Source: Escherichia coli
Lineage (GTDB): Bacteria > Pseudomonadota > Gammaproteobacteria > Enterobacterales > Enterobacteriaceae
Reading direction: 5' to 3' (one strand)
Assembly (NCBI RefSeq): GCF_003334785.1
Contig: NZ_QOWV01000009.1
DNA: 64,000 nucleotides
The notes under the pieces were generated by a model. That model worked only from the letters and a program-made list of their open reading frames with translations. It did not search any database and was not told the DNA's origin. Of this stretch, positions 32,896-37,011 are shown piece by piece. Within the stretch, counting starts at the first letter, position 1, and each line of letters opens with the position of its first letter. The translations under genes were made by a program, and so were the position numbers.

Positions 32896-33177
32896 TCATT
32901 GTTTTTCCTCAAGCCGGTGACGCGCTTCACTGCGAATTTTCCGCGTTGCCCCGGTTTTCACTAAATCACGTAACAGCGAAAGATCGGGTTGTTCGACAAA
33001 TAAGAGTAATGATGGATCCTCTTTTAACCACGCCGTTTTCACATCGGCAGCCAGCTGTGGATTATTAATAGCCAGCGACCGATCCTGAGGCTCAGTCAAT
33101 GTCGTTAACAACAACGCCGGGGTATGTGCGTTGCGCAATGCCGTTTGGCGTAAATGATCATTGCGACTTTGCAGCAA
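32896..33177 (-). CDS. ykiA: Hypothetical small ORF at the position of K-12 ykiA (possible gene remnant)
   Basis: 93-aa ORF MLQSRNDHLRQTALRNAHTPALLL... between rdgC and ppnP; no recognisable domain. The symbol is assigned by position only, recalled from K-12 gene order, and is unverified. Confidence 0.3.
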   Translation of the reverse strand: MLQSRNDHLRQTALRNAHTPALLLTTLTEPQDRSLAINNPQLAADVKTAWLKEDPSLLLFVEQPDLSLLRDLVKTGATRKIRSEARHRLEEKQ

Positions 33178-33384
33178 TGCACGCCACCATTCATCATCTG
33201 ATTTATCTTTTATCGTAGCCAGTTCCGCAACAATATCTGGAGATCTTCACTGATATTTATATCAACCTTGATAAATTATGAATATATCGGAAATTGAAAA
33301 AATCGCAGCAAAGGAAATATTATTATGGGCTAAAGAAAGGATATTTCAGAAAAATGCCCTCCCGTTCAAGGGGAAGGCGAGGAA

Positions 33385-33669
33385 TTACAGATAGCGGCAC
33401 AGATAAGAGGTGGGTTCGGCAACTTGCAGATGAAACTCACTGTGACCGGGAACATTAAACACCGAACCGGCTTCATACACCTGCCAGTCGGTCGCGTCAG
33501 GCAGTAACACATTCAGCGCGCCACTGATTACCGTCATCTCTTCCGGCTCAGCGGTGCTGAAGGTGTATTCGCCTTCAACCATAACACCCACGCTGGCGCG
33601 ACCAGTGCTGCTGCTGGAAAAGCCGATTGATTTCACTTTGCCGGAAAAGTACTCATTACTTTGAAGCAT
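33385..33669 (-). CDS. ppnP: Pyrimidine/purine nucleoside phosphorylase PpnP (YaiE)
   Basis: 94-aa [40 protein letters not shown]... recognised as PpnP. Confidence 0.92.
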
Positions 33670-33740
33670 AAACTGGCCCTGTTTGGTAGTTGAACATCTA
33701 CTTCACTATAGGGGCCAGAGGCGCTGGCTGTCACGCAAAA

Positions 33741-34418
33741 TTACACCAGTAATTCCGCAGCCAGCCGTGCAATCAATACGTTAGACAGCAAGACAGGAAC
33801 ATCGAGCTGTTTTTGCAGTAAATCGCGATGACGTTGGTGAAATCCTAAACAATCCAGCATGATGACATCAGCCCCTTTTGCCAGTAATTCTTTCCCGGCA
33901 TCAATGATTTTTTGTTCTGAATCATGAATGGGGTTACCCAATGAAAATACCGGCGATTTCTGCAAAATTTGCCATTTTTGCGCCTGAACGGGCAGCATCT
34001 CCTCAACCGGAACGATAACCCCCACCTGATGATCTTCAACAATAGAGGAAACCAGTGGAGGCAATATTCGCGACGGCTCAAGAAAGATCGTATTACGCGC
34101 AGTCATACTACTAATGTTTGCTGTACTCATTAATAAAATGACGTCATAACCCTGATTATCGAGCACTTCAACCACACCTTGCAGGTCACGCTCCACTTTG
34201 CGACGCGAAACATGGGCCAGCTGGTTGTCATTTAATAATGTGAGAATGGTGTCTTCGCCTGCTTCTGGCGCGTACTCCGCCATCACTTCTTCACGACTTA
34301 ACTTCCCCAGCAGGCTATGATGGGAAATATTATCTTCGTCAATGTATTCCGTCAGGAGCGGCAAAACTTCCTGCATAGGTACAATGCCGATGGTCAGGAT
34401 CGCCAACGACGCACTCAT
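33741..34418 (-). CDS. aroM: Protein AroM
   Basis: 225-aa [33 protein letters not shown]...; third gene of the aroL-yaiA-aroM operon. Confidence 0.9.
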
Positions 34419-34675
34419 TGTTCATCCACCTTACTTTTCTTTCGTCGTTAATTACCGGGCAAGTGTGAAGCACCACTGCTGACACTTACTTGTGCTACAA
34501 ATGACAAAAAGCGTAGCAGCAGACGTGCACGGCATAATGTAAAGATTCCAAATGATTCCAGTAATGGATTGTTATTGTTTAATATTCTAATTATTAGAAA
34601 AACATGAATTATGAAAAATGTGACGCAGATCCCTTGTAGTGGCACTCAGAATCCCTTCCGAGCAGTCTGATGCGG

Positions 34676-34876
<201 letters not shown>

Positions 34877-34916
34877 TTATTTCACGGGATGAACGTTAAG
34901 TATAGGCGCTCGAAAA

Positions 34917-35441
34917 TCAACAATTGATCGTCTGTGCCAGGGCGCTGCGAATTTCAGAAATCACCTGGCTGGGTTCGTTTGTTGCGTCGATGATAATATG
35001 CGCAACTTCGCGATATAGCGCATCGCGTTCTTCCAGCACTTCCTGAACTTCTTCGCTCAGCGGTTTTCCCGTTAAGGTTGGCCGTAAATCTTCTTCCGGT
35101 GCAGCTTGCAGTCGGTTAACCAGGACTGATACTGGCGCACACAAATAAAACACGATCCCGTTATTTTGCATGAAGTGACGATTAAATTCCGTCAGAATAA
35201 TGCCGCCGCCTGTAGCGATAACGGTGGATGGCGCAGTTACCGCTTCCAGCGCCGCCGTTTCTCTGGCGCGAAATCCCGCCCACTCTTCCCTTTCGACGAT
35301 CTCCGCGACCGTCATATTGAGCTGTGATTGCAACCACTGATCGGTATCGACAAACCGACGGTTAAGCGAATCGGCAAGGGCCATTCCGACCGTTGTTTTA
35401 CCACAGCCCCGAGGCCCGATCAGAAAAAGAGGTTGTGTCAT
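34917..35441 (-). CDS. aroL: Shikimate kinase 2
   Basis: 174-aa [29 protein letters not shown]... with Walker A P-loop (GPRGCGKTT). Confidence 0.95.
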
Positions 35442-35604
35442 CGTGGGTTTTCCCCAATAGGTCGCAATGCGGCGAAAGCCGGTGTCATGAGAATAGCGAT
35501 CATACCATCAAACTAGTACAATTTCGATTGTAAAGAAAAAATTCCACTTAAAGTGAAAATCTCAATACACCCCTTACTATACCAATAAATATTCAAGAAT
35601 GAAG

Positions 35605-35622
35605 TGTAAATAATAAATTACA
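35605..35622. promoter_or_regulatory. Putative TyrR box in the aroL upstream region
   Basis: TGTAAA-taataa-ATTACA fits the TyrR box pattern TGTAAA-N6-TTTACA. A weaker second copy lies near 35529-35546 and an ACTAGTAC TrpR-like half-site near 35512-35519. These sit about 90-180 nt upstream of the aroL start. Sequence-pattern match only. Confidence 0.5.
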
Positions 35623-35623
35623 T

Positions 35624-36082
35624 TTAGCCACGACTACGTTGCACTTCCAGCCACCACTTCTCCAGCTCCGCGGCAAAGGCCTGGCGGTCACGTTGTGAAA
35701 GGCTATCTGGTCCGCCGGTCTGGATCCCACTGGCACGTAAGGTATCCATAAAATCGCGCATCGTCAGGCGCTCACGAATGGTCGCTGGCGTGTAACGTTC
35801 GCCGCGCGGATTAAGCGCCGCAGCGCCTTTCTCGATGGCTTCAGCAGCCAAAGGTATATCTGCGGTGATCACCAAATCGCCCGCTTCACACTGCCGGACA
35901 ATTTCGTTATCGGCAACGTCGAAACCTGCCGCGACGCGCAGCGTACGAATAAATCGCGATGGCGGCACGCGTAAACTCTGGTTTGCTACCAGTACCAGCG
36001 GCATCTGCATACGTTCCGCCGCGCGATACAAAATCTCTTTAATTACATTGGGACACGCGTCGGCATCCACCCAAATTGTCAT
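35624..36082 (-). CDS. yaiI: UPF0178-family protein YaiI
   Basis: ORF-track frame 35624-36202; start placed at [30 protein letters not shown]... (152 aa). Confidence 0.88.
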
Positions 36083-36201
36083 AAAGTCATCCTTTGTTGG
36101 GTAATCCTCTATTGTGTCGCGCTTTTGCCTTCCGGCATAGTTCTGTTTATGCTTCTGCCAGCGATTATCAAAACAATGAATTTCACGGCAGGAGTGAGGC
36201 A

Positions 36202-37011
36202 ATGGAAAAGAAAATCGGTTTTATTGGCTGCGGCAATATGGGAAAAGCCATTCTCGGCGGTCTGATTGCCAGCGGTCAGGTGCTTCCAGGGCAAATCTGG
36301 GTATACACCCCCTCCCCGGATAAAGTCGCCGCCCTGCATGACCAGTTCGGCATCAACGCCGCAGAATCGGCGCAAGAAGTGGCGCAAATCGCCGACATCA
36401 TTTTTGCTGCCGTTAAACCTGGCATCATGATTAAAGTGCTTAGCGAAATCACCTCCAGCCTGAATAAAGACTCTCTGGTCGTTTCTATTGCTGCAGGTGT
36501 CACGCTCGACCAGCTTGCCCGCGCGCTGGGCCATGACCGGAAAATTATCCGCGCCATGCCGAACACTCCCGCACTGGTTAATGCCGGGATGACCTCCGTA
36601 ACGCCAAACGCGCTGGTAACCCCAGAAGATACCGCTGATGTGCTGAATATTTTCCGCTGCTTTGGCGAAGCGGAAGTAATTGCTGAGCCGATGATCCACC
36701 CGGTGGTCGGTGTGAGCGGTTCTTCGCCAGCCTACGTATTTATGTTTATCGAAGCGATGGCCGACGCCGCCGTGCTGGGCGGGATGCCACGCGCCCAGGC
36801 GTATAAATTTGCCGCTCAGGCGGTAATGGGTTCCGCAAAAATGGTGCTGGAAACGGGAGAACATCCGGGGGCACTGAAAGATATGGTCTGCTCACCGGGA
36901 GGCACCACCATTGAAGCGGTACGCGTACTGGAAGAGAAAGGCTTCCGTGCTGCAGTGATCGAAGCGATGACGAAGTGTATGGAAAAATCAGAAAAACTCA
37001 GCAAATCCTGA
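36202..37011 (+). CDS. proC: Pyrroline-5-carboxylate reductase
   Basis: ORF-track frame 36094-37011; start placed at [25 protein letters not shown]... (269 aa) with the N-terminal NAD(P)-binding GxGxxG motif. Confidence 0.95.

Follow-up and report, generated by a model that had tools for sequence, protein, structure and literature searches.

The genes aroL, yaiA and aroM follow one another in the same direction in Escherichia coli and are classically annotated as the operon aroL-yaiA-aroM. Is the spacer between yaiA and aroM simply an internal stretch of that operon, or does one message end and another begin there? According to the original prediction, aroM could have an internal promoter in this spacer, which might otherwise contain a processing site or a small RNA. 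We examined it in a stretch of 64,000 nucleotides of the E. coli contig NZ_QOWV01000009.1, here called the window. Window position p corresponds to position 441846 - p of MG1655 v3, and the U00096.2 coordinate is 776 lower. This mapping was verified on printed sequences (the Term-seq entry for yaiA and the yaiA start entry of Cho 2014), and the coordinate given for the CRP site by Shimada 2011 agrees with it. The spacer is identical to that of MG1655, and from aroL to aroM a single base differs, inside aroL: at window position 35150 the coding strand has T where MG1655 has G, which fits the 99.4% identity of AroL. The strain is thus a K-12 relative and not the reference sequence itself.

Both flanking genes lie on the minus strand, the yaiA stop codon ending at 34676 and the aroM ATG standing at 34418, and the coordinates predicted for a 257-bp gap between co-directional genes are exact. 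The description of this gap as strongly AT-rich holds for a core of about 80 bp but not for the whole, which has a GC content of 0.401 (window, 0.512) and is only at the 5th percentile among 257-nt windows. Stretches of 80 nt as AT-rich as the core make up 0.13% of the window, and the core is flanked by DNA of 43–56% GC; in related spacers its sequence is poorly conserved whereas its length is kept. In size, the gap ranks third among about 36 gaps between co-directional neighbouring gene pairs in the window. The only larger ones are phoR-brnQ (406 bp) and tsx-yajI (298 bp), both of them accepted transcription unit boundaries. The spacer was found in 5426 of 5426 complete E. coli genomes and contains no annotated feature. 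AroM itself has weak similarity to Asp/Glu racemases according to Pfam.

Features of the yaiA-aroM spacer and its flanking genes (window coordinates).
Feature	Position	Strand	Evidence
aroL	34917-35441	(-)	ORF list, MG1655 annotation
yaiA CDS, upstream flank	34676-34867	(-)	ORF list; MG1655 b0389; Pfam YaiA PF16362, E 5.7e-40
yaiA-aroM spacer, 257 bp	34419-34675	(-)	ORF list, MG1655 annotation
yaiA 3' UTR hairpin, 8-bp stem GCUCGGAA/UUCUGAGU, GGGA loop	34644-34663	(-)	fold of 34612-34685
Dominant yaiA mRNA 3' end	34640 (MG1655 v3 407206)	(-)	Term-seq, classed 'primary', Adams et al. 2021 Supplementary file 1
CRP site AGGGATCTGCGTCACA, centre 34626.5	34619-34634	(-)	genomic SELEX, ChIP-seq
TCACA(Y)TTTT island, CRP-box right half and T-run	34614-34623	(-)	alignment
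AT-rich core, GC 0.21 (~80 bp), between CRP site and promoter	34538-34618	(-)	composition
Minor aroM start P1, 148-nt leader	34566 (U00096.2 406504)	(-)	Cappable-seq, score 6.3
Conserved element: TGGAAT 34555-34560, TGGAAT 34545-34550, TTTACA 34538-34543	34538-34560	(-)	repeat, alignment
Conserved box CTGCTACGCTT, extended -10	34509-34519	(-)	conservation, sigma-S consensus match
Main aroM start P2, 83-nt leader	34501 (U00096.2 406569)	(-)	Cappable-seq, score 30.9
aroM 5' UTR, with hairpin 34459-34489 and Shine-Dalgarno AAGGTGG 34426-34432	34419-34500	(-)	fold, alignment
Shine-Dalgarno AAGG island	34429-34432	(-)	alignment
aroM CDS, downstream flank, regulated gene	33741-34418	(-)	ORF list; MG1655 b0390; Pfam AroM PF07302, E 5.4e-76

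The reading that we favour, and regard as probable, is that the gap is a transcription unit boundary at which the yaiA message ends and a control region for aroM, with a CRP site and a sigma-S-type -10 element, begins. On the yaiA side, the gene has a transcription start of its own at 34892, 25 nt upstream of its ATG and within the 49-bp aroL-yaiA junction (34868-34916). This start has a Cappable-seq score of 719, compared with 4.7 and 7.4 for the starts upstream of aroL (Ettwiller et al. 2016), and it is the strongest in Cho 2014, with 15197 reads and four condition codes. In strength, the yaiA promoter exceeds the aroL starts by two orders of magnitude. Its -10 hexamer is TATACT (34899-34904), and the start sits 7 nt after CCTATACTTAA, which matches the sigma-S consensus, as quoted in a citing paper, at 10 of 11 positions. 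Any -35 element of this promoter would fall within the aroL coding sequence. Weaker 5' ends occur in both start-site datasets inside yaiA (window 34744-34859, U00096.2 406211-406326), several of which were assigned to aroM by Cho 2014; these may reflect either internal initiation or breakdown of the yaiA RNA, which is very abundant.

At the other end of the yaiA message, Term-seq places a dominant 3' end 36 nt past the stop codon and 4 nt past a hairpin. The source, Supplementary file 1 of Adams et al. 2021, covers three growth conditions and has yaiA three times; the two entries compared both give 407206. The gap does hold an internal RNA end. Is the hairpin a terminator? Its stem has three G-C, three A-U and two G-U pairs, and it is followed by GCCACUAC and not by a U-tract. 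A consensus scan found no intrinsic terminator anywhere in the gap, and a canonical intrinsic terminator for yaiA was rejected on these two grounds. Neither yaiA nor aroM appears in the other supplementary files of Adams et al. 2021 that were searched, the Rho-region table included. The end at 34640 may be a trimmed or processed one that is shielded by the hairpin, and because the hairpin is not a canonical terminator some read-through of yaiA into aroM is probable.

An equivalent hairpin, ACTC(G/A)GAA...TCTGAGT, is kept in Escherichia, Salmonella and most Citrobacter. It is lacking in Enterobacter, Lelliottia and Leclercia; in Enterobacter and its relatives yaiA is followed by about 35 nt without a stable hairpin. 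In a few genera yaiA is followed by a strong hairpin rich in G+C (loci L066, at about 2793-2815, L036, L039, L045, L068 and L069), and that of L066 is followed by a T-run (CCCCCGCCTCGCGGGGGAATTTTC) and resembles a textbook intrinsic terminator. Since the type of hairpin varies by genus, the manner in which the yaiA message ends differs between lineages. Further along the E. coli DNA, the Term-seq table has a strong primary 3' end downstream of ppnP (yaiE), at window 33351 (MG1655 408495), which follows a hairpin and T-run (CCCTTGAACGGGAGGGCATTTTT); this is a classical terminator that closes the aroM-ppnP stretch.

On the aroM side, Cappable-seq, which enriches triphosphate 5' ends and was applied to one published culture (Ettwiller et al. 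2016), gives two starts within the gap. That at 34501 is the strongest between yaiA and aroM, and the minor one at 34566 possibly has the weak -10 sequence AACAAT (34574-34579). Both positions come from this single dataset. The start-site list of Cho 2014, stationary phase included, goes from 406399 to 406829 with nothing at 34501 or 34566, the SMRT-Cappable-seq supplements have no entry for aroM or for coordinates 4072xx-4073xx, and a literature search found no paper describing an aroM promoter or aroMp. Continuous coverage with no internal 5' or 3' ends, which the original prediction had named as the contrary outcome, is contradicted by the published maps, which show ends of both kinds in the gap. 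A spacer internal to an operon would be short and free of RNA ends; this one is the third-largest gap in the window, and both 3' and 5' ends map inside it.

Just upstream of the main start lies the box CTGCTACGCTT, the best-conserved island of the spacer. In hexamer-convention numbering it has TG at -15/-14, C at -13 and the hexamer TACGCT (34510-34515). As an extended -10 element the box can also be written TGCTACGCTT, and there is no usable -35 element. The start at 34501 is a T, 9 nt after the hexamer, a distance at the upper limit of what is usual. For sigma-S, the extended -10 consensus is KCTAYRCTTAA (Weber et al. 2005, as quoted in a citing paper), and GCTACGCTT, or GCTACGCTTTT (34507-34517), matches it in this quoted form at 9 of 11 positions, C-13 included; the last two positions are TT here and AA in the consensus. 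How much is such a match worth? The pattern KCTAYRCTT occurs 5 times in the window where 2.9 occurrences are expected, and the CRP pattern with up to two mismatches occurs 22 times where 25 are expected. Because neither pattern is above chance, we gave motif matches alone no weight and relied instead on the experimental maps and the conservation of the elements.

With each species represented by one genome, a search yielded 74 loci encoding AroM, nearly all of which retain the order aroL-yaiA-aroM. Complete matches to both yaiA and aroM were available for 68 loci (67 of the 74, plus MG1655), and across these enterobacterial loci the gap measures 186–297 bp, with a median of 237. When the spacers are aligned, a few conserved islands stand out sharply from a background in which identity to the E. 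coli base is about 43% (see table). Of the 74 loci, 48 have the CTGCTACGCTT box exactly and eight more have a variant of it (CTGCCAGGCTT, CTGCTAGGCTT, CTGCTACGATT, CTGCTACGCTA and CTGCCAGGATT). The variants all retain C-13, A-11 and T-7, and these three bases are invariant across the 56 loci of the 74 that carry the box. A-11 and T-7 are the two bases that sigma factors recognise in the -10 element. Variant CTGCCAGGCTT is found in Escherichia albertii NBRC 107761 (L070) and Intestinirhabdus alba (L016), and the related CTGCCAGGATT in L069. In the E. albertii locus (about 2130-3000) yaiA seems to be truncated or degenerate: the match is limited to residues 23-55, at 61%, and overlaps the end of the aroL match.

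The box is wholly lacking in the other 18 of the 74 loci, which include L051-L063 and L065 (Kosakonia, Phytobacter and relatives). Many of these keep TCACA(T)TTTT and, at the place of AGAATATT in E. coli, have a hexamer resembling TAnTAT, such as GTTACTATT. The aroM promoter may differ in these genera. In the aroM leader, a block at 34441-34463, 23–45 nt upstream of the ATG, reads (C/T)TTGCCCGG(G/T)AAT(T/G)AACGACGAAG and is kept in Escherichia, Citrobacter, Salmonella and Intestinirhabdus but not in Enterobacter and its relatives.

Two loci, L047 and L038, have lost yaiA. In L047 the TCACA, TTTACA and GCTACGCTT sequences are all at their usual distances from the aroM ATG; in L038 TCACA is at the same distance and the other two are present in variant forms (ATCTTTACG and CTGCTACGCTA). 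The persistence of these elements next to aroM when yaiA is missing indicates that they belong to aroM.

Expression data point in the same direction. A 2026 study reports that aroM mRNA is lower in an rpoS deletion strain at both pH 7.5 and pH 5.5, as judged by RNA-seq and qPCR, and singles out aroM with aldB, ydcS and ydcT as the four genes that are lower at both pH values. Neither aroL nor yaiA is in any of the supplementary lists of that study. An earlier review also counted aroM among rpoS-dependent genes, and in Cho 2014 the units 'yaiA;aroM' and 'aroM' are distinguished from 'aroL;yaiA;aroM'.

Could aroM nevertheless be expressed mainly by read-through from the aroL and yaiA promoters, the 5' ends in the gap being minor starts or processing products? 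This would be in keeping with the classical annotation, with the Cho 2014 units that run from aroL or yaiA into aroM, and with a yaiA hairpin that is not a canonical terminator. Against it, the method that detected 34501 enriches triphosphate ends, making a cleavage product unlikely; the yaiA start is some 23 times stronger than the aroM start, and yet there is a dominant 3' end at 34640; aroM responds to rpoS whereas aroL and yaiA are not in the lists; and the promoter elements persist where yaiA has been lost. We judge such an arrangement quite improbable as the main source of aroM mRNA. That aroM depends purely on read-through is unlikely, since the gap has a capped start and a dominant 3' end of yaiA, and aroM responds to rpoS separately.

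If aroM has a promoter of its own, which sigma factor reads it? From the features of the -10 box, namely C-13, the CTAYRCTT pattern and the upstream TG, we infer that it would be read mainly, and directly, by the RpoS holoenzyme. Such recognition would explain the rpoS dependence of aroM mRNA. The rpoS effect could, however, be indirect, with a real promoter that is read by sigma-70 as an extended -10 (TGn) promoter, or by sigma-32. The TG at -15/-14 serves sigma-70 as well, and the start at 34501 was seen in the one culture used for Cappable-seq; TACGCT, on the other hand, is a poor sigma-70 hexamer and has no -35 element 16–18 bp upstream. Sigma-32 is suggested by genomic SELEX, in which a peak of RpoH holoenzyme, not RpoS, falls in the yaiA-aroM spacer at about window 34534 (Shimada 2017), but inspection found no sigma-32 -10 element (CCCCATnT). 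In the main-text tables, the RpoS SELEX study does not include aroM, and the RpoD SELEX paper includes only the yaiI-aroL spacer and not yaiA-aroM. ChIP flags for both sigma-70 and sigma-S cover the yaiA-aroM region in Cho 2014, at low resolution and adjoining the strong yaiA promoter. C-13 and CTAYRCTT are sigma-S-selective features according to the consensus as quoted, and aroM is among the four genes that the authors of the 2026 study single out at both pH values. Taken together, this makes the sigma-70 or sigma-32 alternative rather unlikely, and we retain sigma-S as the probable main reader.

The second input is CRP. The 16-mer AGGGATCTGCGTCACA was listed for the yaiA-aroM spacer in the in vitro genomic SELEX of Shimada 2011, and the same 16-mer was a high-confidence site, assigned to aroM, in an in vivo CRP ChIP-seq study of ETEC H10407. 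It matches 8 of the 10 core positions of TGTGA-N6-TCACA. The right half, TCACA(Y)TTTT, is present in 55 of the 68 spacers, and the left half is variable. The distance from the centre of the CRP site to the -10 hexamer is strictly kept, at 111.5–113.5 bp (about 112.5) in 41 of the 44 spacers in which the two elements occur together. Where does this place CRP with respect to the starts? Relative to the main start the centre is at -125.5, which is not a standard activating position. Relative to the weak start at 34566 it is at -60.5, compatible with class I spacing, for which the reference positions are near -61.5, -71.5, -82.5 and -92.5. Judged by this spacing, the weak start may be that of a CRP class I promoter. 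In the text consulted, the 2026 rpoS study gives aroM no special mention when it describes genes that respond to a crp deletion, and the sources consulted report neither an effect of CRP on aroM expression nor fusion data. The internal promoter that the original prediction had suggested for aroM is upheld by triphosphate 5' ends at 34501 and 34566, a conserved -10 element, CRP binding, and an rpoS effect listed for aroM but not for aroL or yaiA.

Between the CRP site and the -10 box lies a further conserved element, which spans -59 to -37 from the main start. It begins with a direct repeat of TGGAAT with a 10-bp period and ends in TTTACA. The part conserved across genera is (A/G)ATCTTTACA (34538-34546; -45 to -37), which in Escherichia, Citrobacter and Salmonella is preceded by the two TGGAAT repeats, and wherever TTTACA and GCTACGCTT occur in the same spacer, TTTACA is the upstream one, at a distance of exactly 26 nt. 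TTTACA was rejected as a -35 element because it is 22 bp from TACGCT in every species, which is too long. Comparison by eye with the motifs for TyrR, OmpR, CpxR, PhoP, ArcA, EvgA, sigma-E, sigma-54 and sigma-32 found no match to the conserved elements. For Cra, GGAATCTTTACA is loosely similar to the operator but fails in Enterobacter, which has GATC instead of GAATC, and a literature search for a link between aroM and Cra found nothing relevant. One might speculate that (A/G)ATCTTTACA is the operator of a factor not so far assigned to aroM, and that CRP acts at a distance through the AT-rich DNA, giving a promoter with three inputs (sigma-S, CRP and the further factor). This is a tentative suggestion from the pattern of conservation, and on balance we hold it to be doubtful. 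Were it true, a three-input promoter of unusual geometry could offer a way to approach what AroM, which resembles racemases, does in the cell.

Does the gap encode anything? A small RNA, the remaining idea of the original prediction, found no support. It is true that the gap can form two hairpins (34459-34489 and 34644-34663). When 33000-36500 was scanned with Rfam at permissive settings, no match rose above chance level; the best one in the gap, to a lncRNA model from mammals, had E = 4.6 and 19.8 bits, the gathering score being 55. Neither the entire gap nor the yaiA 3' region nor either leader folds better than shuffled sequences (z from -1.07 to +0.70), the aroM 5' UTR being unremarkable at z = +0.25, and RNAalifold applied to the aroM leader of 38 sequences found no consensus pairs. 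To the eye, segments complementary to the CTGCTACGC box lie downstream of it in several genera, but their distance and order vary and such pairing was not counted.

Mechanical open reading frames of 65, 30 and 27 codons are present on the minus strand of the gap. Their similarity in other genomes tracks the conservation of the DNA and decays outside Escherichia, and a small protein was rejected on this basis. The 65-codon frame is matched in other genera only from about residue 20 onward, its N-terminal third being lost, and a 1-nt indel in this stretch separates genera. All three frames begin upstream of the main transcription start, and the MG1655 RefSeq annotation, which includes recent small proteins such as YkiD, has nothing in the gap. 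It is therefore very improbable that the gap encodes a small protein, a small RNA or a leader of the riboswitch type.

We accordingly return to a boundary between two units, for which the parts described above would fit together as follows. The yaiA gene would be transcribed from its own strong promoter at 34892, and its message would end at 34640 after the small hairpin, giving a predicted RNA of about 253 nt. The remaining 220 bp or so would then be the regulatory region of aroM, made up of the CRP site, the AT stretch whose length is kept, the TGGAAT/TTTACA element and the extended -10. RNA polymerase would start at 34501 and make the 83-nt leader; the weaker start at 34566 is spaced 60.5 bp from the CRP centre, a distance that would be suited to activation of class I type.

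The main value of this analysis is for annotation. The aroL-yaiA-aroM stretch would be better described as three nested units, whose promoters are aroLp, yaiAp, which is very strong, and an internal one for aroM; the yaiA 3' end sits between the last two. Separate units explain why aroM follows the general stress regulon and aroL is under TyrR/TrpR control. Position in the operon alone is consequently no ground for assuming that aroM has a role in aromatic amino acid synthesis. The general picture of promoters, terminators and operons is unchanged. The conserved ATCTTTACA / TGGAAT element, with its strictly kept distance to the CRP site, is of some interest.

How does the region compare with known systems? 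csiD and aldB have promoters under joint sigma-S and cAMP-CRP control, and the aroM region is like them in having a CRP site upstream of a sigma-S-type -10 element and in being occupied by CRP. In csiD the CRP site is near -68.5. In aroM, by contrast, it is at -125.5 from the main start, and the class I-like position of -60.5 applies only to the weak start. The parallel with aldB extends to expression, since aroM behaves likewise in the rpoS mutant of the 2026 study. With sigma-S extended -10 promoters in general, the aroM promoter shares the match to 9 of 11 positions of the consensus as quoted, including C-13, the lack of a usable -35, a start just downstream and an rpoS-dependent gene. It differs in having TT for AA and a start 9 nt away, and in that the spacer is not in the RpoS SELEX table of the main text.

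The end of the yaiA message resembles Rho-independent termination in that a hairpin lies immediately upstream of the mapped 3' end; unlike such terminators, it has no U-tract, its short stem has two G-U pairs, and the consensus scan was empty. The closest comparison is with the sub-operonic units described by Cho 2014 and Conway 2014. Here too, the gene annotated as the last of an operon, aroM, has its own start and its own regulation, and the gene before it has its own 3' end. There is no difference in kind: the yaiA-aroM gap is a typical example, an ordinary sub-operonic boundary most of whose parts were already present in public genome-wide datasets.
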